Of a DNA stretch of 64,000 bases, positions 45-59,118 are shown piece after piece. Source of the DNA: Escherichia phage MIZ4; sequence record OR167180. One strand, given 5' to 3'. Below the pieces are notes generated by a model. It searched no databases and was not told the DNA's origin. It worked only from the letters and a program-made list of their open reading frames with translations. How positions within the stretch are numbered: position 1 is the stretch's first letter; every line of letters starts with the position of its first letter. The position numbers and the translations under genes were made by a program.

Positions 45-1283
45 TCAGTTTAGGGAAGTAAGGTCAAAGCTCATCATCCAACGGTAAGCATTCGGCACAG
101 GTTCTTTTACGAATGCGCCAGGATAAGTCTGCTTAGGCTGTATCTTGTTCTCCGGTACTACTTTACCCTCAGCTTTCAGAGATCCGAAGATAATAGCATC
201 CCATACTTTCATCGGGTTATAAACATGGTTAAATTTAATCTTTGCATAGAAACATAGGCTATACACCAGATCGATAAATCCACGCTTTTTATCAATCGCC
301 AGCACACGGTCAACGTCGCCGATGTTATAATCTATGTAAAGTTGATGGTTATCATCACGCAATTTCTTTAACGGACCATCATAATCAACCTTACCGATTC
401 CTGTCTCATATTCAGCAACATAATCTAACGCATATGTTGGTTGAGTCGTAAAGCTAAATTTCTTGTACAGGTCAATATAATCAAGGCTTTCGATCCCCAT
501 GATCGTAAATGCTTCACGCTCGTTGCCAAAATCATCCTGTGAGATTCGGGATTTAATCTTACCGCACGGGCTTAGACGGTTAGCGGTTCTACTTCCGAAC
601 TTATTACTGATACGTTTAATGATATATGGAATATCGAATGTTTCTGTGTTCCAGCCAGTGAAACCAACGGGTCGGTTTTCCTCAAAGAATCGGATGTATT
701 CTAACAGCAATTCATCTTCTGTGTCATAGACGTTATAAACAACGCGCTCTACAATATCAGGTCGAAGAATAGACTTGCTTGCTTCCCAGATTTCACCGCT
801 TTTTCCTTTCAAATCAAATACAAAGAAACGATCATGTACGGAATCATAATGCGTAATTGCATCGATAGGATATTTCGCTTCTTCTGGTTTAGGAAATTCC
901 GGTGCAGTGACCTCGATATCAACCCATGCTACACGGATTTTATTTCGGTCATATCGAATCTCGCCTTTATATGTATCGGACAGATAGGAGATGATAAAAT
1001 CATCCATCCCTAGTGCCTCCTGCCCCATTTCTCCCATCTTTTTACGCCATTTGTTGGCCTCGTTCATAGATGGGAATTTTTTAGCAATGCAAGGCTTGCC
1101 ATAGATATCTTTATAATTCGTAACCATACCAGGCGCGGCATGATGAAATAAAGTTGGCGTATATTCAACGTAACGCTCTTGTTCTTGTCCAGCATCATCA
1201 ATATAACGCTCGTAGATCTTATCACCCACTCGCTCACATGACAGAAAATACATAATATAAACTCCTTCACTTACGAAAGACAC
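45..1283 (-). CDS. 43: DNA polymerase (family B, T4 gp43-like), N-terminal exonuclease-domain fragment; frame ends at an in-frame TGA inside motif A
   Basis: Translation aligns by eye to the T4 gp43 N-terminus (KDIYGK, FPSM, LGMDDF, DAITHYD, LDYIDLYKKFSF, IDYNIGDV, MSFDLTSL); stop at 45-47 where T4 continues YPSII. Confidence 0.85.
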   Translation of the reverse strand: MSFVSEGVYIMYFLSCERVGDKIYERYIDDAGQEQERYVEYTPTLFHHAAPGMVTNYKDIYGKPCIAKKFPSMNEANKWRKKMGEMGQEALGMDDFIISYLSDTYKGEIRYDRNKIRVAWVDIEVTAPEFPKPEEAKYPIDAITHYDSVHDRFFVFDLKGKSGEIWEASKSILRPDIVERVVYNVYDTEDELLLEYIRFFEENRPVGFTGWNTETFDIPYIIKRISNKFGSRTANRLSPCGKIKSRISQDDFGNEREAFTIMGIESLDYIDLYKKFSFTTQPTYALDYVAEYETGIGKVDYDGPLKKLRDDNHQLYIDYNIGDVDRVLAIDKKRGFIDLVYSLCFYAKIKFNHVYNPMKVWDAIIFGSLKAEGKVVPENKIQPKQTYPGAFVKEPVPNAYRWMMSFDLTSLN

Positions 1284-3317: not shown

Positions 3318-4004
3318 TTAGTCGGTGTAGCTGGAGTCAAGGTCACACGCGATCATATAAGATACGGTTTCACTTGCCAGCCATACAGCCTTACGGCGAG
3401 TGAAGCTCAGTTTGTAATCGCCGAAGTCAGTAGCAACCAGTTTCATGTTATCTTTACGAATAAAGAAATGGAAGTCTGCGGTTCCGGTATATTCGCCCAT
3501 ATCAAGACAAAACATCTCATTAGGATTATTTTTGTCAATCTCTTCCCAACCTTTGATCATCAGACGACCATCAATCGGAAGAAATTCAAGGCGGTCCACT
3601 TTAAGCTGATTGCTCATTTTCATAAGCTGTTTCAGATCGTCGTTGCTCAGTTCGTAATCTACATCGCTTGCAGGTGGAGTAACTCGGCCTTTCGGTGATA
3701 CGATAGCGGCAGCACTAGCACCAGGATAATTAATTTTCAGACGATCATTAGACACACGAATGTTTCCGGTGCGGTCATCAACCGTAATATCTGCTTCATC
3801 GCCCACCAGATTCAGAATACCCAAGAAAGAGTTAAGATCATAGATCCCAATTTCGTGTTCCAGTTCTTGATTCAGAGTCGCTTCACCATATACAACGTTT
3901 GTCATGTTTTTGGTGATCAGGACGTTTCCTTTTTTCAGGATGATACCTGGGTTAATAGCGGAAAAGTTTTTCAGGGTAGCAATGGTTTCTTTAGTCAGTT
4001 TCAT
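3318..4004 (-). CDS. 45: sliding clamp gp45
   Basis: 228 aa; MKLTKETIATLKNFSAINPGI versus T4 MKLSKDTTALLKNFATINSGI; IYDLNSFLGILNLV. Confidence 0.85.
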   Translation of the reverse strand: MKLTKETIATLKNFSAINPGIILKKGNVLITKNMTNVVYGEATLNQELEHEIGIYDLNSFLGILNLVGDEADITVDDRTGNIRVSNDRLKINYPGASAAAIVSPKGRVTPPASDVDYELSNDDLKQLMKMSNQLKVDRLEFLPIDGRLMIKGWEEIDKNNPNEMFCLDMGEYTGTADFHFFIRKDNMKLVATDFGDYKLSFTRRKAVWLASETVSYMIACDLDSSYTD

Positions 4005-4034
4005 CAAATCACCTTTATCATGTTAATCAATTAA

Positions 4035-10106: not shown

Positions 10107-10340
10107 TTATTTTACCTCTGGGATATAATCAATTATTAAAGAAAATTCATCTTCTGATACATTATAGCTATGTGAGATTGTACCCGTCAAGACCTCAAGA
10201 TCCGGTGATTTGATATTGCACGGATCGATAATCACCGGAACGCCGCAATCTCTCAAAAATAATTTGGCGAAATACGGCACAAGGTCAGTTTCAAACTCTG
10301 CTTCTTCCAGCAAACGGGAAATGTTAATTTTCAATCTCAT
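10107..10340 (-). CDS. hypothetical protein
   Basis: 77-aa ORF. Confidence 0.35.
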
Positions 10341-10857
10341 AAAATTGGTCCAGGCTAGGCAATTCCTCGGTCAATACATCTTCAACCTTTGGCGCTTTCG
10401 GTTTATTGACCGATTCCTCGTAGTTGTTGATTTTATCGTAAATGTCCTGTATGAATGCCTCATCAGCAATCTGGCACATATCAGCGTCGCGTTCGTCATA
10501 TACATGATGCACAAAATATTTGTATTTTGCGGCTGTCGCTGTTCTTTCTTTTTTAATGCGCTGCACAAAAGCATTAAAGCACGCTTGCGTGATGTAAGCA
10601 TGAGGATTTTTATACTTTGTCTCGTCAAAATTAATCAAACCCTTGACCGCCGCTTCGATTCCATCGTCGATCATTTCTTCGCGCCATGTTTGACTATAGC
10701 CAGAAAAGTTAAAACGCCGTGATAGATTTTTAGAGATTTGCATAATTGCCAGGCCGATTTGGTCACTCATTGGCACTTGCCGACCTTCTGCTGCAATTCG
10801 TTGTTTCCAACGGCAAATTTCTTCGTAAAGCTCTTTATTGTTTACATAATCAGACAC
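10324..10857 (-). CDS. 55: late-transcription sigma factor gp55
   Basis: [70 protein letters not shown] match T4 gp55. Confidence 0.85.
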
Positions 10858-15432: not shown

Positions 15433-15942
15433 TCAAATAATTTTCACTGGAATACTATTAACAATCTTGTATTGTACTTGATTGTCAGACCCCCGCCACG
15501 GCTTCTTCGTTGGCATATCTTTAATATAACGCCCATCGATGAACATGTCAACTGATTCTACAATTTTTCTTTGCTCATCATTCAATTGGTCAAGGGTATA
15601 ACCAGACCATAGCCAAATATCTTTATTTGGCATCCATGATTTTACTTCATCGATGATCCGCTGTACACCCTTTAAATTGCGTTTATACAGTGGATCGCCA
15701 CCTAAGAATGTTAGCCCCTGAATAAAATCAGGTCTAAGCAGATCCAGAATCAATCCCATTGTATCATCGGTGAATGGTTCCCCGTTCTTAGGATTGAGTA
15801 GGCTAGCATTAAAGCAACCATCACATGCGTGTGAACATCCGGTAACGTAAAGGGAGACTCTCACTCCCTCACCGTTCACCATATCACAATCTTTAATATC
15901 GGCATAGCGTAGTTTGCCGTATGTATCAGAACTCATATTCAA
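15433..15942 (-). CDS. nrdG: anaerobic ribonucleotide reductase activating enzyme NrdG (radical SAM)
   Basis: radical-SAM CxxxCxxC (CSHACDGC); GLTFLGGDPLY, KDIWLWSGY, KKPWRGSDNQ match T4 NrdG. Confidence 0.85.
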   Translation of the reverse strand: MNMSSDTYGKLRYADIKDCDMVNGEGVRVSLYVTGCSHACDGCFNASLLNPKNGEPFTDDTMGLILDLLRPDFIQGLTFLGGDPLYKRNLKGVQRIIDEVKSWMPNKDIWLWSGYTLDQLNDEQRKIVESVDMFIDGRYIKDMPTKKPWRGSDNQVQYKIVNSIPVKII

Positions 15943-22734: not shown

Positions 22735-23547
22735 TCAATCTACGTTAGTTACATAAACTTCTTGCGTATCAGAAGACTTACCACCTGAACGATCTAGGCA
22801 ATAGGTCTTATTCAACAAGACGCAGTTTAAATCATTCCGCTTGATAAAGTCAAGAAGATGATCATTTACCTTTCCCTTATGATGTGTGACATTACTGATA
22901 CCAAACTGAAAACCACGCGCCATAATAGATTCTACCCACTGATAGAATTTAATCTCTTCTTCTTCACTCCAGAACTTATTATATTCTGCCGATGTGATCC
23001 AATATGGCGGGTCCAAATAAACGAAATCACCTGGCAAGATCTCGATCTCGTCATAGCGACCAGACGTAAAACTGATTCGACCGTCTTTGTTTTCTTCCTT
23101 AAAATTCAGGACACGCTCTACCGCGTTTTCGTTAAAAGTCCGGCGACCAAAATTAGCATTAAATTCTCCCTTCCTGTTATGGCGGTTAATGTTGCTAAAA
23201 CTGTGCTGAATCAGAACAAACAGAGATAGCGGATCTGGATTCTCATTATACTTCTTACGGAATGCCATGTAAGCGTCTTTATCTTCGCGAGACAAACCAT
23301 TTTCGGCAATAATACGCTTGATCGTAGAAACCGGATCAGGACACTCGTCAATCGCTTTGTACGCGTCAATTAAGCGGTGATCATAGTCATTAGCCAGCAC
23401 ATCCCCTTCTACGTACAGAGACACGCTCAAGCCACCACAAAAGGCATCGACAAAGCGGTTATAGTGCTTAGGGAAATACTTACTAACACCAGGCAATAAC
23501 TTTTCCTTATTGCCCGTATAGGGAATTAAACCTAATGCTTTCTTCAT
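22735..23547 (-). CDS. dam: DNA adenine methyltransferase Dam
   Basis: YTGNK, NRFVD.FCGGLSV, catalytic DPPY (FVYLDPPYWI), YNKFWSEE match T4 Dam. Confidence 0.85.
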   Translation of the reverse strand: MKKALGLIPYTGNKEKLLPGVSKYFPKHYNRFVDAFCGGLSVSLYVEGDVLANDYDHRLIDAYKAIDECPDPVSTIKRIIAENGLSREDKDAYMAFRKKYNENPDPLSLFVLIQHSFSNINRHNRKGEFNANFGRRTFNENAVERVLNFKEENKDGRISFTSGRYDEIEILPGDFVYLDPPYWITSAEYNKFWSEEEEIKFYQWVESIMARGFQFGISNVTHHKGKVNDHLLDFIKRNDLNCVLLNKTYCLDRSGGKSSDTQEVYVTNVD

Positions 23548-40742: not shown

Positions 40743-40928
40743 TCAGAAATATGCAATATAGTTTGCCAGTCCTACAGAGTCATCATTCGGCATTGCTTTT
40801 ACTGCCAGTTCAAACCCTGCTTCAACTTTCTGTTTAGCGGATTCTTCGTTATAACCCCAGATTACCAGAATAGCTACTACGTTTTCTTTGCTTACTGCTT
40901 TCAGTGCTTTAGTGATGCGACGTGCCAT
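40743..40928 (-). CDS. hypothetical protein
   Basis: 61-aa ORF starting at the cassette RBS. Confidence 0.3.
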   Translation of the reverse strand: MARRITKALKAVSKENVVAILVIWGYNEESAKQKVEAGFELAVKAMPNDDSVGLANYIAYF

Positions 40929-46859: not shown

Positions 46860-46867
46860 TATAAATA
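46860..46867 (+). promoter_or_regulatory. T4-type late promoter TATAAATA upstream of gene 53
   Basis: exact TATAAATA about 32 nt before the gp53 ATG in the divergent 4/53 intergenic region. Confidence 0.6.
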
Positions 46868-46899: not shown

Positions 46900-47454
46900 A
46901 TGCTCTTTTCTTTCTTCCCTGCCATTGAATACAACGGCAAGATGATTACTGACATTGTGCGCAATTACCGCGCATATTTCAACGCAATAATTTCTGATTA
47001 TAACATACAAACATATTACATTCAAGGTAGTCCACGACCGGAACAAGTTGCATATGAAGTATACGGAAACCAACAACTTTACTGGATCTTGCTGATGCTT
47101 AATGACGTATACGATCCGTTCCATGACTGGATCACCGATCAAGAGACAGCATATGAATCAGCCGAACAACGATATGCAAATGTAGGAGGAAATCAAGTAT
47201 TATACCACGTTGATATTGACGGAAACAAGTATTGGAATCTTACCGAATATCCGAAAGGATCAAGCAATTGGTATGATAAAGGGGATATTCATCATCGTCA
47301 TTTGCAGTTTCAAGGTGCATTATCGGCGGTAGACACACTGGAAGATGCGATCCTCCGCAATGAGGAACGACGCAAGATCAAGATCATAGATCCTACACAA
47401 ATTAAACAATTTATTAACGCATTCATACGAGAAATGGAAAAGGCTGATGTGTAA
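46900..47454 (+). CDS. 53: baseplate wedge protein gp53
   Basis: MLFSFF.AIEY, YYIQGSPRPE, QLYW.LLM.ND.YDP...WIT.QE.AY, KIKII match T4 gp53. Confidence 0.85.
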   Translation: MLFSFFPAIEYNGKMITDIVRNYRAYFNAIISDYNIQTYYIQGSPRPEQVAYEVYGNQQLYWILLMLNDVYDPFHDWITDQETAYESAEQRYANVGGNQVLYHVDIDGNKYWNLTEYPKGSSNWYDKGDIHHRHLQFQGALSAVDTLEDAILRNEERRKIKIIDPTQIKQFINAFIREMEKADV

Positions 47455-55500: not shown

Positions 55501-55677
55501 AGCGAATTGTTCCACGGACTTAAAGCAAGCGAACGAAGATTTGCAATGAGTCCACTGTTTGACCAGTCGGCGGTAACATTCTCTATGTTCCGTGAACTTG
55601 TAGATAAACGGTTGAAGGATAATATAGGAAATCCACGCGATCCGAAGAATCCGACACAGAGGAAAATTAATGGCTAA
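52591..55677 (+). CDS. 7: baseplate wedge initiator gp7
   Basis: 1028 aa versus T4 gp7 1032 aa; position. Confidence 0.75.
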   Translation: MIKAPSVTSLTIEKLSANQAYITWDDVGENFFYFVELAETRTRDGEIIPVDELSWVNLGYTAEQNWFEDKNLFPEYYYKFRVAVAAEGFEQSKWVETEEFQTFKTNAYNFSMMREFNLANEFIKEKFTYDNREYVKFNTDLIQASLMKEDFVFSPEYANMTNISNYIVVDENFHEIQDHIEKVCTDINRTMLAEMNGVLYLFERFQPIVKVSNDKGQSWKAYKAFNDRVGNPVSRTCVYQSKTTTYVLGYDRIFYGRQASDTRWSADDVRFSDDTITFAKVGDENDLGFDVEVFGVFSRLTGDTTKYAEAMACSDDYLWVGAKDVIRRIRLKNTPVDTVQGSPTFGEKIFDPDVIRVTGNDKAVIQKMDVIDGKLLVFVTGEVKQRYQDPTKPENVVPSDDAGVYLIGSDGLSFQRVFGNTPQEREYIQHGFSNMSTNGDEVFISHYNHHFESILPDPETAAKYELSEAVKYSQEPTYLTDKKIHQTTFRASYDDLRIWELGPQAYYNEADYTWMRRNGVRVWITNDNRPLVVYPEVVYTQEVDTSGILDKNRINREVYDKGTVTCYLNNVKFEGFKQYASGVMFHKNTGEIIGFYQFNYRVRDQVGVYWKPTNVAFVAELQNQVREVPWVPVHYDREQDPDLRPLLNKMTPDSFLLENENFRKFSEYYLQFLSDGSGTYYNKLKNLIKNKYPREQDAYEYLWSEMNKRNIYADKNKRDAVVRFFESRKSDFYSTKGVEASYKFLFKLLYNEDVEIEVESQAGLEYDIVVSSTNIDEDIVGRTIYTPTGRANVTYLEREYEGGRLRWRVTIHNLIGRFEEGQVIKSEKTAFEGMILVGVRGKELLSSSIDYINRSRSQYTMKIKSALPVSRYANDVMRFVHPVGFGFIGVTLLTMFINSGLSMKHTETIIQSLKNYKFDSGLPSVYPDRVADLDVDGNIKKDPLTGKALYLTSPTMGEEFPVPPEYDQENSELFHGLKASERRFAMSPLFDQSAVTFSMFRELVDKRLKDNIGNPRDPKNPTQRKING

Positions 55678-56665
55678 TGAAAATAGTGTGATCTATCGCT
55701 CAATCATTACTAGCAAATTCAGAACAGAAAAACTTCTGAACTTCTATAATTCTGTAGGCGATGGAGCAAATCAAATTACAATTTATGGAACGTTTGGACG
55801 TTCGGAGCCGTGGTCAGAAAACGAAAAAGAGGTGGGCTTTGCCCCACCTTATCCGACCGATTCAACGGCTGGTGTTGTTGACATGTGGACCCATATGATG
55901 GGGGCGGTTAAGATTAACAAATCACTTCTTGATGCGGTTATCCCTCGTAAAGATTGGGGTGATACCGGACAGGATAACCCGCGCACGTTCTTTATCAATG
56001 ACATTGTTGTCGTAAACTCAGCACCATATAACCGAACTGATGTTGGTAGCGGCTGGATGGTGTATCGCGTAACCGATGTTCCTGATCGCGGTTACTGCTC
56101 GATTTCAAGCATTGACGCTAAAGTAGAGTGTTTGAAGTTGGGCGGAAAGTGGACCCCCACTCATGAATCAATTGCGCCACCTGTAGGAAAGGGCGATTCT
56201 ATTGATATGGGTGATGGGTATCGTTGGGAATATCTGTACACAATTCCACCTGATGCGGCGATCAACCGTTGCACCAATGAACATATTGTTGTACCGTTCC
56301 CCGATGAACTGCGACAAGATCCGGCGCGTTGGGGCTATGACAATGTGATCACCTGGTATAATGACTATAATCTGCTTTATCGGCTGAAAGTAGTAACTTT
56401 GCGTTTTCAGGCTTATATGGACTCTGCGCAATTCCCAACTACCGCGTTAGTGGGTAATACTGGTTTCCGTCAGTTAAGCATTATCCTTAACCCATTGGAA
56501 AAGAAAGCACGCCCTAGCGATCCAGACGTTAAAGCGGTCAAAGATAAGTACCGACCGCAAGACTTAGAGCCACACTCAGGCGAAATGATCTACATGGAAA
56601 ACCGACAACCTATCGTTCGGTCATTAGATCAAACAGAACTTGTTTCTGTATTGTTTGAGTTCTAA
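55670..56665 (+). CDS. 8: baseplate wedge protein gp8
   Basis: 331 aa versus T4 gp8 334 aa; position. Confidence 0.75.
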   Translation: MANENSVIYRSIITSKFRTEKLLNFYNSVGDGANQITIYGTFGRSEPWSENEKEVGFAPPYPTDSTAGVVDMWTHMMGAVKINKSLLDAVIPRKDWGDTGQDNPRTFFINDIVVVNSAPYNRTDVGSGWMVYRVTDVPDRGYCSISSIDAKVECLKLGGKWTPTHESIAPPVGKGDSIDMGDGYRWEYLYTIPPDAAINRCTNEHIVVPFPDELRQDPARWGYDNVITWYNDYNLLYRLKVVTLRFQAYMDSAQFPTTALVGNTGFRQLSIILNPLEKKARPSDPDVKAVKDKYRPQDLEPHSGEMIYMENRQPIVRSLDQTELVSVLFEF

Positions 56666-56679
56666 GTGTATGATTTTAA

Positions 56680-56703
56680 AAGCCAATTCGAGAGAGTTGG
56701 CTT
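56680..56703 (+). terminator. hairpin plus T-run after gene 8
   Basis: AAGCCAA..TTGGCTT followed by TTCCATTTTT. Confidence 0.4.
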
Positions 56704-56717
56704 TTCCATTTTTGGTG

Positions 56718-56745
56718 TTGACAATCTTATTTGGTAAGGTATAAT
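56718..56745 (+). promoter_or_regulatory. sigma70-like early promoter cassette on the plus strand inside the late baseplate operon, TTGACA-16-TATAAT
   Basis: TTGACA ATCTTATTTGGTAAGG TATAAT ACACACATCTAAACAACGGAGGATAAATT ATG, leader similar to the minus-strand cassettes. Confidence 0.55.
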
Positions 56746-56774
56746 ACACACATCTAAACAACGGAGGATAAATT

Positions 56775-57032
56775 ATGGCACGTCGTAAATTTACAGATAA
56801 TTGTGAAGCAATTCAGGTATCCCCTTGCGGTTGGGATGTGATCGCGAACGGTGAAAAGATTGGAGAGATCATCGATCATACTCATTCATCACTAGCCGAT
56901 TACACCGATGAACTATGGGAGGGTATCAACTTCATGAATGACACTAAACGATTCAAGACTATCGACGAAGCTATCTATTTTGTGTATAATCCAACTTTCG
57001 GTATGTGGGGAACTAGAAAATGGCACGCGTAA
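56775..57032 (+). CDS. hypothetical protein
   Basis: 85-aa ORF, first gene of the inserted cassette. Confidence 0.35.
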   Translation: MARRKFTDNCEAIQVSPCGWDVIANGEKIGEIIDHTHSSLADYTDELWEGINFMNDTKRFKTIDEAIYFVYNPTFGMWGTRKWHA

Positions 57033-57349
57033 ATATTAAACTGCATTATACAATGGGTAAACCAAAACATCCAATGCATAAAGTGTTTTGGGGCTTGCAT
57101 CTTCAAGAAAAATGGCATGATAACTATTGGTTTTGTGACCATGATAAGAAGTGGCATTCTCAAGATGAAGTTAATGCGATGATGGAACAGGGTATCAAAT
57201 TTAATTACTCTAATTATGACCATAGCATTACTTGTATTCGAAAATTGAAACGGTTTATTCGAAAGAATCCGCAATTTAAAAACTTTGTGTTCTTTATGTC
57301 TCATGTTTATTTGGGGCATAGCGTTACCGTAACAGTAAAGGTTAAATAA
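57020..57349 (+). CDS. hypothetical protein
   Basis: 109-aa histidine/tryptophan-rich ORF. Confidence 0.35.
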   Translation: MARVNIKLHYTMGKPKHPMHKVFWGLHLQEKWHDNYWFCDHDKKWHSQDEVNAMMEQGIKFNYSNYDHSITCIRKLKRFIRKNPQFKNFVFFMSHVYLGHSVTVTVKVK

Positions 57350-58188
57350 TGGCACGACTTTCTAAACAAGAGCAAAAATTACACGATCGGGCGATGGAGT
57401 TGATTAATTCAGATCGTCCATTGACATTTGAAGAAAAAGAATTTTGCTATAACAACTATCATGGCGATGGACTAGGTGGTTCCGGTGCATTCTTTACCCC
57501 AGAATGGCTTGCCTGGGATTTTACCATTGATGCATATTGCACCGGAAAAGTATTAGATCTTTGTGCGGGGATCGGTCGCTTATCTTTTTGTATGTTACAT
57601 CGTTGTAAGCCAGAAAAGATCGTATGCGTCGAACTCAATCCAGAATTTGCGCGGATTGGCAAGCGACTATTACCGGAGGCAGAATGGATCACCAGCGATG
57701 TATTCGAATTTGAGTCAAACGAAAAATTCGATGTGGTGATCAGCAATCCACCTTTCGGTAAAATCAATACTACAGACACAAAGGATGTATTTGAATATAC
57801 TGGCGGTGAGTTTGAATTTAAGGTTATGACGTTAGGCCAGAAGTTTGCCGATGTAGGTTATTTTATTGTTCCTGCTAGTTCCGCTGGGTTTGCTTATTCC
57901 GGCAGACCTTATTATGATGAATCAGTGAAGTCTAATAAATATCTAAAATGGAGCAAACAAACTGGTTTGGTGACTTACGCCGGATGTGGGATCGATACAT
58001 CAATCTATCGCGATGAATGGCATAGTACCAACGTTTTAACAGAAGTGGTTGAGGTTCGGTATTACGAGAAAGAAGCCGTAGAAGCGCCTAAATCACGTCC
58101 CAACGAACAAATAGAAGAAAGTAAGGAGATTACCTTACCGAAACAGGAAAGCGAGTCTGGGACGCTCTCAGATTTGTTTGACATTTAA
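57349..58188 (+). CDS. SAM-dependent N6-adenine methyltransferase (gamma-class motif order)
   Basis: motif X-like GAFFTP, motif I VLDLCAGIGRLS, motif IV ISNPPFG, in that order. Confidence 0.65.
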   Translation: MARLSKQEQKLHDRAMELINSDRPLTFEEKEFCYNNYHGDGLGGSGAFFTPEWLAWDFTIDAYCTGKVLDLCAGIGRLSFCMLHRCKPEKIVCVELNPEFARIGKRLLPEAEWITSDVFEFESNEKFDVVISNPPFGKINTTDTKDVFEYTGGEFEFKVMTLGQKFADVGYFIVPASSAGFAYSGRPYYDESVKSNKYLKWSKQTGLVTYAGCGIDTSIYRDEWHSTNVLTEVVEVRYYEKEAVEAPKSRPNEQIEESKEITLPKQESESGTLSDLFDI

Positions 58189-58194
58189 TTATAA

Positions 58195-58212
58195 GCCGTC
58201 CTTGTGGGCGGC
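58195..58212 (+). terminator. rho-independent terminator
   Basis: GCCGTCC TTGT GGGCGGC followed by TTTTTT. Confidence 0.55.
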
Positions 58213-58228
58213 TTTTTTGTATGTATTT

Positions 58229-58236
58229 TATAAATA
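58229..58236 (+). promoter_or_regulatory. T4-type late promoter TATAAATA upstream of gene 9
   Basis: exact TATAAATA about 27 nt before the gp9 ATG. Confidence 0.6.
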
Positions 58237-58263: not shown

Positions 58264-59118
58264 ATGGCACAAGTTCCAAAGAAAAGAATAGACACAGGTA
58301 CTGTCGGCAATCCATCGACTGGCGATATCTTATATGATGGCGGTAATAAAATTAACGATAACTTTGATTCAATATATGACGCATTTGCTGATCAACGGTT
58401 TAAAGACGTAGACCACGGCGTAGGAAGAATGGTTATTCATGCAACCGGATACTATCAGAAACATCCACGTCAAAGCTACGCTGGGTCCGCTGTTGAGATT
58501 GGGAGTCTACACGATATCGATACAACTCAAGGCGCACTTATTGCTATTCTACCTAAAGCAAAGGTTGGTGAGGGTGTTGTATTCATAAATAGTAACGGTA
58601 GCTTTTCAACGACGACACCGCTCAATATTAGAACTCAAGCAGGTGATTCTATTAGCGGGTATTCCGGTGATGCTATAATAACACAACCATTTTCAAAAGT
58701 CACTGTTTGGTGTACTGCCGTTGAAGGTAGTCGCGTAACATGGCGATTGGGTATCGAAAGTATGTTTACCGATACAACAACGCCATTAGATAAAACAGTT
58801 AACGTAACTGGAGTAGCAACAAACGTTGCTATTTCCGCAAAAACAGAATACGTTTCCATCAAATTATTAACTACCGCTAGCAATACATCCGGTTCAAAAA
58901 TGCGTTCAAGTGAAACGCTACTGATGATTGATTCTAAAGCCGGAAAAGTTTATGCGACGGAATATGCAGTTTTGCAGAAGACAGAAGATGAGCTATACAC
59001 GGTTCGTTATTTCATCGGTTCCGGCGATAAAGTATATGCAGAGTATAAGGCTACTGGCGAAAATATTCGTTTAGCAGTTAAAGCCGTAGACACTATTAAA
59101 ATCGGGGTTGCTACATGA
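58264..59118 (+). CDS. 9: baseplate wedge / long-tail-fibre socket protein gp9
   Basis: PKKRIDTGTVGNPSTGDILYDGGNKINDNFDSIYDAF, IHATGYYQKH, IKIGVA match T4 gp9. Confidence 0.85.
   Translation: MAQVPKKRIDTGTVGNPSTGDILYDGGNKINDNFDSIYDAFADQRFKDVDHGVGRMVIHATGYYQKHPRQSYAGSAVEIGSLHDIDTTQGALIAILPKAKVGEGVVFINSNGSFSTTTPLNIRTQAGDSISGYSGDAIITQPFSKVTVWCTAVEGSRVTWRLGIESMFTDTTTPLDKTVNVTGVATNVAISAKTEYVSIKLLTTASNTSGSKMRSSETLLMIDSKAGKVYATEYAVLQKTEDELYTVRYFIGSGDKVYAEYKATGENIRLAVKAVDTIKIGVAT

Follow-up and report, generated by a model that had tools for sequence, protein, structure and literature searches.

The closest described relatives of the region between genes 8 and 9 are the PeSL (promoter-early stem-loop) cassettes of the phages RB49 and phi1 (Arbiol et al. 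2010, PMC2839356; Comeau et al. 2014, PMC4122927), a class that has been known since its description in 2010. PeSLs flank non-core genes, and a few of them lie within virion modules beside genes without known function (PMC2839356). Promoter and terminator activity of other PeSLs was demonstrated in vivo by lacZ reporters, and these elements are documented recombination substrates (PMC2839356). The 8-9 locus, a methyltransferase or the baseplate is not mentioned in PMC2839356.

The last gene of the region calls for a second comparison, with the ligands of replication clamps. Among the bacterial beta-clamp ligands Pol II, Pol IV, UmuC, MutS and Hda carry the motif QL[SD]LF (Dalrymple motif). In the T4 system gp43, gp55 and gp33 are clamp ligands with similar hydrophobic/acidic C-termini; these tails are interchangeable and are borne on flexible linkers, the linker feature having been described for gp55 (PMC2988020). 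The T4 gp45 ligands listed are the clamp loader, gp43, gp33 and gp55, with no methyltransferase among them (PMC2988020). A structural paper on the interaction of the T4 DNA ligase with the clamp also exists. In eukaryotes the DNMT1-PCNA interaction, mediated by a PIP box, serves replication-coupled maintenance methylation (PMC9690074). In the literature searched (subscription journals were mostly outside it) replication-clamp-coupled methylation was found for eukaryotic DNMT1 only, no methyltransferase was found as a beta-clamp ligand, and nothing relevant was found on the present methyltransferase or on Krischvirus methylation.

The window, i.e. the whole stretch of DNA analysed, is 64,000 nucleotides long and belongs to an RB49-like phage of the genus Krischvirus (MIZ5 in the analysis). 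The elements between and including genes 8 and 9 are the following.

55670-56665, plus strand: gene 8 (gp8), baseplate wedge subunit, the upstream late gene (Pfam PF09215 Phage-Gp8, 1e-143; phrog_977)
56678-56705, plus strand: predicted stem-loop terminator/attenuator, the stem-loop half of the PeSL (12-bp stem, then a T-run)
56718-56745, plus strand: predicted sigma-70 consensus early promoter TTGACA-16-TATAAT, the promoter half of the PeSL (12/12 matches)
56775-57032, plus strand: ORF-A, 85 aa (phrog_16603)
57020-57349, plus strand: ORF-B, 109 aa (phrog_12630)
57349-58188, plus strand: methyltransferase, 279 aa (ORF; Pfam MTS)
58193-58214, plus strand: predicted closing terminator hairpin (9-bp stem with 6 GC pairs, then T6; annotated in GEC-3S)
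58229-58236, plus strand: putative late-promoter box TATAAATA of gene 9, assigned by its position ahead of a late gene
58264-59118, plus strand: gene 9 (gp9), baseplate wedge / tail-fibre connector, the downstream late gene (Pfam T4_gp9_10_N, 4e-41)

The hairpin behind gene 8 has a folding energy of -16.7 kcal/mol (z -4.3), and none of 200 shuffled sequences folded equally well; it is predicted to mark the end of the gene 6-7-8 transcript. A terminator is annotated at this hairpin in GEC-3S, and a homologous hairpin stands at the equivalent position in L016, a related, divergent metagenomic phage. The closing hairpin is of similar quality (-15.9 kcal/mol, z -4.4). The window contains 31 near-consensus promoter sites with at most one mismatch, the cassette promoter being the sole one on the plus strand, and GEC-3S has a promoter annotated at the same TTGACA-16-TATAAT site. 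Several of the 31 sites have in common the context ggtgTTGACA and a leader of the form ACAcaTCgAAAC...GGAG...ATG. The leader of the cassette, acacacatctaaacaacGGAGGataaattATG, is similar to the leaders of early cassettes that the window carries on its minus strand, and the upstream hairpin likewise resembles the hairpins of other early cassettes. The promoter would be expected to act early in infection.

ORF-A, ORF-B and the methyltransferase gene all begin with ATGGCACG, an octamer which occurs four times in the window against 1.15 expected, three of the four copies being the start codons of the cassette. The genes are tightly packed: the first 13 nt of ORF-B still belong to ORF-A, and its stop codon runs into the start codon of the methyltransferase gene (TAATG). 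The late-promoter box TATAAATA has two plus-strand copies in the window, each just 5' of a late gene, and in L016 it is arranged ahead of gene 9 in the same way. Its count in the window is not enriched (4 against 6.7 expected), so its significance comes by position alone. The terminator, the promoter and the cassette-type leader, the three ORFs with their common start, and the second terminator followed by the late promoter of gene 9 had all been described in an earlier sequence-only reading, and each of them was found as described.

That reading had also proposed comparing the 8-9 junction in related phages. Genes 8 and 9 are contiguous, with a gap of 9-63 bp and no cassette, in Tequatrovirus ime09, Tulanevirus IME13, a Slopekvirus-like phage and a Pseudotevenvirus, i.e. 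in four other genera, while the cassette is present at a nucleotide identity of at least 94% in 58 Krischvirus records. The cassette is a Krischvirus-lineage-specific insertion between the late genes 8 and 9, in agreement with the suggestion that an early-type promoter cassette had entered the late baseplate cluster. Annotations of it exist already (RB49 ORF140w-143w), and it is ordinary for phages of the Krischvirus type. By its elements, a stem-loop terminator, a strong predicted sigma-70 promoter and a closing terminator, the region belongs to the mobile regulatory cassettes of the PeSL type. Like the PeSLs of RB49 and phi1 it combines a consensus sigma-70 promoter with a stem-loop terminator and has a Shine-Dalgarno sequence and start codon directly 3'; the stem-loop lies 13 nt 5' of the -35 box, as in the PeSL subclass in which the stem-loop precedes this box. 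It differs from the RB49 and phi1 PeSLs as described in that a second terminator closes the unit and gene 9 keeps a late promoter of its own.

The first two genes of the cassette seem to have little to do with the third. ORF-A and ORF-B gave no match in Pfam, NCBIfam or PADLOC, and in PHROGs they fell only into families of unknown function. ORF-A is split by a frameshift into two ORFs in the RB49 record and has a homologue of about 69% identity in a 138-kb phage. ORF-B is rich in His, Trp and Cys; its best matches separate into a close group of 19 records with at least 95% identity and a more distant one of 69 records with 60-80%, to which Krischvirus phages at about 72% also belong. A Vequintavirus homologue of ORF-B (about 68%) has its own terminator and promoter. 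We considered whether ORF-A, ORF-B and the methyltransferase form one conserved functional module. This was ruled out by the separate Vequintavirus ORF-B cassette, by L016, where the same cassette holds the methyltransferase alone, without ORF-A, and by tblastn, in which both ORFs were absent from stretches of 5-20 kb around methyltransferase homologues in four non-Krischvirus phages and four Citrobacter chromosomes. Judged by this distribution, ORF-A and ORF-B are accessory passenger genes unrelated to the methyltransferase.

The conserved motifs of the methyltransferase all fall within its N-terminal part.

57349-58068, plus strand: methyltransferase catalytic core, aa 1-240 (N-terminal helical region, motifs X, I and IV)

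The core contains motif X (GAFFTP, aa 46-51), motif I (LDLCAGIG, aa 70-77), the acidic residues E95 and D117, and motif IV (NPPF, aa 133-136). These motifs and both acidic residues are invariant or nearly so across the methyltransferase family, which bears out FFTP, LDLCAGIG and NPPF as they had been picked out before, and the core is confidently modelled by AF2. Pfam MTS (PF05175) is passed at 37.8 bits against a cut-off of 23, and Eco57I marginally (26.5 against 25.3). By these features the protein is a solitary class I SAM-dependent amino-methyltransferase of the [DNS]PP[YFW] group. The more specific assignment made in the sequence-only reading, a gamma-class N6-adenine methyltransferase, stands in part: the linear order X - I - IV is that of the gamma class (FFTP 48-51, CAGIG 72-76, NPPF 133-136), but the Pfam N6_Mtase model (PF02384) reached 15.8 bits against a threshold of 20.4, no discrete target-recognition domain is present, and the fold matches are mixed. 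After about aa 240 only a disordered linker follows, and there is no adjacent S-subunit gene. The NCBIfam model TIGR02987 scored 20 against a cut-off of 353, and the equivalogs PrmC (36.9 against 199) and RsmC (26.6 against 295) were missed as well.

The best fold matches include the rRNA m6A enzymes METTL5, PH1948, Erm and KsgA and the DNA m6A enzymes BseCI, TaqI and HsdM. Since they are mixed in this way and the top single structural match is METTL5, an rRNA enzyme, fold and sequence do not distinguish a DNA from an RNA substrate. The best profile matches outside PHROGs are DNA methyltransferase models (PADLOC mad2, 5.5e-17; Type II methyltransferases). Identity to M.TaqI, M.BseCI, HsdM and METTL5/PH1948 is only 13-25%; TaqI and BseCI have a C-terminal target-recognition domain which the phage enzyme does not have, and it is without any partner of the kind that HsdS is for HsdM or TRMT112 for METTL5-type enzymes. 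The gamma-class identity is plausible, the most likely target atom in view of the fold is the adenine N6, and DNA would be the substrate. Annotation gives little guidance here; the records name the protein variously, or mislabel it, as PrmC, rRNA m2G methyltransferase, BsuBI methylase or radical SAM protein, and the database labels on it are unreliable.

The most informative feature of the cassette is the C-terminal tail of the methyltransferase, which the sequence-only reading did not contain. The tail and the proteins with which it is compared are encoded as follows.

58069-58161, plus strand: low-complexity linker, predicted disordered, approximately aa 241-271 (pLDDT below 50 at residues 245-271)
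58162-58188, plus strand: C-terminal peptide TLSDLFDI and stop codon, putative gp45-binding motif (likeness to the gp43 tail)
3318-4007, minus strand: gene 45, sliding clamp, the proposed docking partner (Pfam gp45-slide_C 3.5e-14, DNA_PPF 4e-6; RB49 gene 45)
10324-10857, minus strand: gene 55, late sigma factor, its C-terminus being a known type of gp45-binding tail and serving as motif reference (regular-expression match)

In the AF2 model a disordered linker of about 30 aa is followed by a short terminal helix. The DNA polymerase (gp43) of MIZ5 and RB49 ends in SLTDLFDI and the methyltransferase in TLSDLFDI, the final five residues being identical to those of gp43 of the same phage. When 1219 stop-terminated frames from 160 kb of MIZ5 were searched with a regular expression for the tail, the matches were gp43, gp55, the methyltransferase and one spurious frame. 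The linker is not kept in a 67%-identical homologue (P0002) and is missing from the chromosomal homologues, while the tail motif is kept in P0002 and P0004 despite their diverged linkers. Like gp43, gp33 and gp55 of the T4 family, the methyltransferase thus has a hydrophobic/acidic extreme C-terminus on a variable, predicted unstructured linker; unlike in these proteins, the carrier of the tail is a methyltransferase, and its gp45 binding is predicted from sequence. The likeness suggests that TLSDLFDI is a gp45-clamp-binding peptide. The combination of a methyltransferase core, a disordered linker and a clamp-type C-terminus seems to be new.

At the nucleotide level, the final 14 nt of the methyltransferase gene, TGTTTGACATTTAA, are found identically at the end of gene 43, and within them lies TTGACA, the PeSL -35 box. 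Upstream of these common 14 nt the tail codons of the two genes show synonymous differences. A recent copying of the 3' end of gene 43 was ruled out, as only the 14 nt are in common and both the flanks and the upstream codons differ. Part of the identity of the tails could nevertheless be a recombination scar left by the shared TTGACA-containing stretch.

The tails of other family members were compared in a set of representatives. Among 99 with a C-terminal extension, 51 end in a hydrophobic residue followed by Phe ([LIMF]F), against 7.6 +/- 2.7 (maximum 18) in shuffled sequences, and the QLxLF beta-clamp motif is present in 24 of the 99, against 0.44 (maximum 4). In plasmid and island homologues a Pro/Ala-rich linker leads to an extreme C-terminus with QLSLFDAA, QLTLF or QLALF; the Pseudomonas megaplasmid copies checked end in QLSLFDAA, and so does a copy in an integrase-flanked element. 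The type of motif follows the type of clamp: T4-like tails occur in phages which encode gp45, and QLxLF in elements which use the host DnaN. The plasmid and island members resemble in this respect Pol II, Pol IV, UmuC, MutS and Hda, whereas the phage enzyme itself has the phage-type motif instead of QLxLF. The Slopekvirus and Pseudotevenvirus tails, DLFTFTIE and NLFTFTIE, have only a loose likeness to the polymerase tails of the same phages, DLFGDW and TLFGDDW. The tail is missing in 46 of 145 representatives, and also in the Aeromonas, Sinorhizobium and jumbo-phage copies; since many family members are tailless, the enzyme does not depend on it. The family occurs on mobile elements only, in hosts as different as Enterobacteria, Pseudomonas, Streptomyces and rhizobia.

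The explanation that we favour, and regard as reasonably probable, is that the PeSL cassette carries an orphan DNA adenine methyltransferase which is tethered to the replication clamp through its tail. The cassette would be transcribed by the host RNA polymerase early in infection, and the tail of the enzyme would dock on the gp45 clamps loaded on the replicating phage DNA, so that newly made DNA would be methylated in step with replication. Phage genomes with ordinary cytosine would in this way be marked fast and completely, the most probable purpose being protection from restriction. The plasmid and integrated-element homologues would work in the same way, their QLxLF tails docking on the host beta clamp. 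Both the clamp binding and the anti-restriction role are here inferred. The logic proposed is that of DNMT1-PCNA, a DNA methyltransferase being brought to new DNA by a short clamp-binding peptide. The differences are that the phage enzyme is an amino-methyltransferase and not a C5-cytosine enzyme, that the motif is another one, and that viruses or plasmids, not cells, carry it; of a DNMT1-like preference for hemimethylated DNA there is no sign in the phage enzyme. The DNA of RB49-type (pseudo-T-even) phages is cut by many restriction enzymes, which argues against a dense, non-specific methylation. We hold more tentatively a wider version, which we would call possible rather than probable: that the whole mobile-element family is hard-wired to the clamp, with the Krischvirus tail specific for gp45 and the plasmids and integrated elements methylating themselves behind the host fork via QLxLF.

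The alternative which survives best, although it appears unlikely, is that the enzyme is a freely diffusing orphan DNA methyltransferase and TLSDLFDI a by-product of PeSL recombination without clamp function. The TTGACA in the shared 14 nt is, in gene 43, truly the -35 box of the next PeSL promoter, the documented role of PeSLs as recombination substrates (PMC2839356) would provide the means, and many homologues work without a tail. However, the residues [ST]-L-[ST]-D-L ahead of the common 14 nt are kept as protein with different codons, divergent homologues retain a clamp-type tail on unrelated linkers, and one homologue (P0003) has the tail TLDFVDFSEI with no TTGACA in its 3' end. The enrichment of QLxLF on elements without PeSLs would also be left unexplained.

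An RNA or protein methyltransferase, modifying the host translation machinery early in infection (rRNA m6A as by METTL5 or Erm, m2G as by RsmC, glutamine as by PrmC), is in our estimate distinctly unlikely. The Pfam MTS family includes RsmC and PrmC, which some of the record names echo (PrmC, rRNA m2G methyltransferase), and the top NCBIfam matches are PrmC, the L3 glutamine methyltransferase and RsmC, all far under threshold; the absence of a target-recognition domain points in the same direction. On the other hand, the NCBIfam scores are all 5-10 times under the cut-offs, the PADLOC DNA methyltransferase models outscore the RNA models, and structurally HemK and RsmC match less well than BseCI, TaqI and HsdM, which act on DNA. 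A sliding-clamp tail is sensible only for an enzyme acting on DNA, and the confinement of the family to mobile elements of diverse hosts fits the marking of self DNA better than the ribosome of any one host.

It is highly improbable that the tail is regulatory, the protein competing with gp43, gp33 and gp55 for gp45 and so tuning replication or the onset of late transcription, with methylation secondary or lost. Such a role would suit a gene that lies within the late operon yet under early control, and gp45 is the activator of late transcription whose ligands have interchangeable tails (PMC2988020); but the SAM-binding and catalytic residues are all invariant in the family, implying selection for catalysis, and plasmids, to which the logic of late transcription is inapplicable, share the architecture with beta-clamp motifs. 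The remnant of a restriction-modification system, a possibility raised in the sequence-only reading, is hardly credible: despite the weak similarity to the methyltransferase models Eco57I, Type II and mad2, the gene has neither a nuclease nor a specificity subunit beside it in any of about 12 phage, plasmid and chromosomal contexts examined (Krischvirus, Slopekvirus, Pseudotevenvirus, Aeromonas phage, Sinorhizobium phage, megaplasmid, Citrobacter). The sole restriction-modification genes seen, about 6 kb off in a different segment of one element (L018), belong to a Type I system unrelated to it.

If the wider version, a whole family hard-wired to the clamp, is true, the family would be a prokaryotic and viral counterpart of DNMT1-PCNA. 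If the Krischvirus tail is specific for gp45, methylation would be limited to DNA made by the phage replisome, giving a phage with ordinary cytosine a replication-coupled 'self' mark. Such a mark would shield progeny DNA from restriction and might also serve phage nucleases or the packaging machinery in discriminating between phage and host DNA. Krischviruses are therapy-relevant coliphages without the hydroxymethyl-cytosine protection of T4, and a clamp-coupled second adenine methyltransferase would be a concrete candidate for the way in which they cope with restriction. Provided that the tail docks on the clamp, the arrangement would amount to a simple, widespread form of replication-coupled DNA methylation in bacteria, plasmids and phages; the family occurs in phages, in Pseudomonas resistance megaplasmids and in integrative elements.

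The other methyltransferase of the phage is encoded elsewhere in the window.

22735-23547, minus strand: Dam (TIGR00571, 6e-44, above cut-off)

The presence and position of Dam agree with what the sequence-only reading had given. Its statement that the phage encodes two adenine methyltransferases therefore holds for Dam, and a solitary amino-methyltransferase is present in the cassette as well, but the latter is to be counted as a candidate second adenine methyltransferase only. Like the cassette enzyme, as predicted here, Dam is a solitary, phage-encoded adenine enzyme expressed before packaging. It differs in belonging to the TIGR00571 subfamily, in its locus and in its C-terminus, which ends ...QEVYVTNVD and is no clamp-type tail.

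The cassette, an early-promoter block of three genes, lies between the baseplate genes gp8 and gp9. The two hairpins, the promoter, the three ORFs and the TATAAATA element that the sequence-only reading had placed here were all found at the locus, and the Dam gene it had claimed elsewhere was borne out. The features are as follows (window coordinates).

55670-56665, plus strand: gp8 (Pfam Phage-Gp8, 1e-143)
56678-56705, plus strand: upstream 12-bp hairpin (dG -16.7 kcal/mol, z -4.3)
56718-56745, plus strand: promoter, TTGACA-16-TATAAT, 12/12 match
56775-57032, plus strand: ORF-A, 85 aa
57020-57349, plus strand: ORF-B, 109 aa
57349-58188, plus strand: methyltransferase, 279 aa
58193-58214, plus strand: GC-rich downstream hairpin, then a T-run
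58229-58236, plus strand: TATAAATA, upstream of gp9
58264-59118, plus strand: gp9
22735-23547, minus strand: Dam, confirmed

The three cassette ORFs (starts 56775, 57020 and 57349) each begin with ATGGCACG and are coupled via overlapping stops and starts. The window holds four copies of ATGGCACG (1.15 expected), three of which are these start codons, while the fourth, at 40921-40928 on the minus strand, appears to start another promoter-driven small ORF. The MA[KR] start is ancestral within the methyltransferase family; its sharing by ORF-A and ORF-B as ATGGCACG may reflect a translation-initiation preference or a recombination junction. The only plus-strand TATAAATA in the window besides that of gp9, at 46860-46867, sits a short distance upstream of the ORF at 46900-47454, with which the plus-strand run leading to the baseplate genes begins, and fits a late promoter opening that run. 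The 2.1-kb stretch around the cassette is 100% identical in MIZ5 (OR167181.1) and 94-97% identical in 57 other Krischvirus records, including RB49, phi1, JSE and GEC-3S. The promoter and both terminators are already annotated in the GEC-3S record, and the cassette genes are named ORF140w-143w in RB49.

When the window was scanned for sigma-70 sites with at most one mismatch, 31 were obtained, of which 30 fall in early regions, on the minus strand, and a single one, at 56718, is on the plus strand. Its upstream hairpin, its 'ggtgTTGACA' context and its ACACATC...GGAG...ATG leader are common to several other sites, and the cassette is a member of the PeSL (promoter-early stem-loop) class described by Arbiol et al. 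for RB49 and phi1 (PMC2839356). According to these authors a few PeSLs sit inside virion modules, beside genes of unknown function, and the 8-9 junction is not discussed in that paper (PMC2839356). The sequence-only reading had suggested comparing this junction among phages. Since genes 8 and 9 are only 9-63 bp apart in four other genera (one Tulanevirus, one Tequatrovirus, one Slopekvirus-like phage and one Pseudotevenvirus), the insertion is lineage-specific.

In a metagenomic Krischvirus-like phage (L016/L017) the order between gp8 and gp9 is hairpin, TTGACA-16-TATAAT, methyltransferase (65% identical to that of the cassette) and hairpin/TATAAATA, with both ORF-A and ORF-B absent. Neither ORF had a match around the methyltransferase homologues in the four non-Krischvirus phages and four Citrobacter chromosomes checked, or in Pfam, NCBIfam or PADLOC. 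Because the methyltransferase stands alone in the L016/L017 cassette and the two ORFs are patchy elsewhere, it is the conserved cargo, and ORF-A and ORF-B are shuffled passengers. ORF-B illustrates how single genes are shuffled within the cassette: its matches fall into two identity bands, at least 95% (19 records) and 60-80% (69 records, Krischvirus phages at ~72% among them). Vequintavirus homologues are at ~68%, and the one in FFH2 (L029, 2330-2830) has its own terminator hairpin and TTGACA promoter. The RB49 record (L002, 1876-2122) shows ORF-A split into ORF140w and ORF141w by a frameshift, whereas the 85-aa ORF is intact in MIZ5, GEC-3S and phi1; either RB49 was misread in sequencing or its ORF-A is a pseudogene.

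The methyltransferase belongs to phrog_3820 (5.6e-116), with 1710 homologous proteins in a large protein collection (721 representatives at the 50% identity level). In Slopekvirus and Pseudotevenvirus the homologue is located not at the 8-9 junction but between genes 41 and 61.1, in a variable stretch that adjoins replication genes in KP15 (L007, 4001-4777) and Lw1 (L008, 4046-4786). Further homologues were found in Aeromonas, Sinorhizobium, Dickeya and Yersinia phages, on Pseudomonas megaplasmids and Streptomyces and Agrobacterium plasmids, and on chromosomal islands of Citrobacter and other enterobacteria. Among the Pfam models generic MTS passed, Eco57I passed marginally and N6_Mtase stayed below threshold. 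The NCBIfam matches (PrmC, RsmC and others) were 5-10 times under the cut-offs, thus the names PrmC and rRNA-m2G methyltransferase that some records give it are unfounded; for the Slopekvirus and Pseudotevenvirus homologues, some records have the wrong names 'radical SAM protein' or 'modification methylase BsuBI'.

The best single fold match was the rRNA enzyme METTL5; other high scores went to lmo1582 (17.6), PH1948 (17.6), M.BseCI (17.1), M.TaqI (16.6) and Erm, KsgA and HsdM (~16), with HemK (13.3) and RsmC (13.6) scoring lower, and Foldseek concurred. The top PADLOC matches were DNA methyltransferase models (mad2, 5.5e-17, and Type II methyltransferases). Judged by these nearest folds and best models, adenine N6 is most likely the target atom. 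A separate target-recognition domain was not found in the protein. The fold alone fits either DNA or RNA as substrate, and it allows an enzyme acting on RNA or protein; against an enzyme of this kind stand the clamp tail described below, the family's confinement to mobile elements and family scores that fall below threshold. Motif X (GAFFTP), motif I (CAGIG), E95, D117 and NPPF are invariant or nearly so across the family, thus the protein is very probably an active enzyme, and with its catalytic residues invariant a role as a clamp competitor or regulator is unlikely. The earlier proposal of a restriction-modification remnant is not supported, since no linked nuclease was found in any phage, plasmid or chromosomal island context examined.

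In the family alignment the chromosomal copies stop after the last core strand, at ~238 aa, and many phage and plasmid copies extend further, through a low-complexity linker to a conserved C-terminus. The MIZ5 methyltransferase ends in ...ESGTLSDLFDI, and the DNA polymerase gp43 ends in ...KVASLTDLFDI in both RB49 and MIZ5. gp43, gp33 and the late sigma factor gp55 are ligands of the sliding clamp gp45 and have hydrophobic/acidic C-termini of a similar kind; these tails can replace one another, and the linkers that carry them are variable and unstructured (PMC2988020). In the structure model, residues 245-271 of the methyltransferase are predicted to be disordered and are followed by a short terminal helix. 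In 160 kb of MIZ5 there are 1219 frames that end in a stop and span at least 45 codons; the expression [ST]L.{1,2}[LFM][FY].{0,6}$ matched gp43, gp55, the methyltransferase and a single spurious frame of 60 codons, and no others. Divergent homologues carry such tails on unrelated linkers: SGTLTDLFDI (P0002, 67% identical), GSLSMFDI (P0004) and KTLDFVDFSEI (P0003). Since the DNA match to the end of gene 43 covers the last 14 nt only and the tail codons before it show synonymous differences, the likeness to gp43 appears to be kept at the protein level; a recent copy of the gene 43 end is ruled out.

The family-wide comparison used 145 representatives with a complete core (one per 50%-identity cluster), 99 of which are extended by 10 residues or more. 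[LIMF]F occurred within the last nine residues in 51 of the 99 (shuffled extensions 7.6 +/- 2.7, maximum 18 in 1000 shuffles), and Q[LIVMF]x[LIVMF][FL] within the last twelve in 24 of the 99 (shuffle 0.44, maximum 4). QL[SD]LF is the classic bacterial beta-clamp motif. QLSLFDAA was found on the two Pseudomonas plasmids checked, drawn from 115 Pseudomonas plasmid records, and on an integrase-flanked element, while other members have QLTLF, QLALF or QISLF. The tail type tracks the clamp: gp45-encoding phages have T4-type tails and the host-DnaN elements checked have QLxLF. The match of tail to polymerase is looser in KP15 (DLFTFTIE vs DLFGDW) and Lw1 (NLFTFTIE vs TLFGDDW). The tail is scattered on the neighbour-joining tree with at least 39 state changes, which indicates that it was gained and lost repeatedly.

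We infer the promoter timing, clamp binding, DNA substrate, adenine N6 target and biological role, which would combine as follows. Early PeSL transcription would supply the enzyme at or before the onset of replication; its tail (TLSDLFDI) would dock on gp45 clamps on the phage DNA, and the flexible linker would give the catalytic core access to the duplex in the wake of the fork, so that methylation could keep pace with the very rapid T4-type replication. Since it is the phage clamp ligand that the tail matches, rather than the host motif, the enzyme would act preferentially on phage-replicated DNA. The likely benefit would be protection of the cytosine-containing Krischvirus DNA from restriction. 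Krischviruses are without the hydroxymethyl-cytosine pathway (PMC12115623; PMC13390438). Glucosylated methyl-cytosines were reported in Krischvirus SAP, for which no pathway was identified, while the 99.96%-identical TB34 has canonical cytosines (PMC13390438); both carry the methyltransferase cassette, and a link to the SAP modification is not evident. Database records already contain both the cassette and the gene, and the PeSL class has been published. A literature search of incomplete coverage found no paper in which a methyltransferase of a phage or bacterium is connected with a sliding-clamp motif, thus an earlier description is possible; the sole methyltransferase example in a clamp review is the eukaryotic DNMT1-PCNA (PMC9690074). 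The preferred reading is an orphan mobile-element methyltransferase with a putative replication-clamp tether, and the tether hypothesis is directly testable.

The TTGACA -35 box of the PeSL promoter that follows gene 43 (TTGACA-16-TATAAT) falls within the final codons of that gene (L-F-D-I-stop, cTGTTTGACATTTAA; RB49 15776-15803, MIZ5 ~93440-93475, outside the window), thus the clamp-binding tail of gene 43 overlaps an early promoter; the methyltransferase gene ends in the same 14 nt (window 58175-58188) without a -10 box downstream. The tail could therefore be regarded as a scar of PeSL recombination, as the shared 14 nt include this true -35 box, but this cannot explain the protein-level conservation upstream of them, the tails without TTGACA, or the enrichment of QLxLF on elements without PeSLs. 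RB49 has a single 893-aa gp43. In MIZ5 the gene is split into an N-terminal 403-aa ORF, at window 45-1283 on the minus strand, and, outside the window (MIZ5 93461-97253, just upstream of the window start), an HNH endonuclease ORF followed by a 469-aa C-terminal ORF, which looks like a homing-endonuclease insertion.
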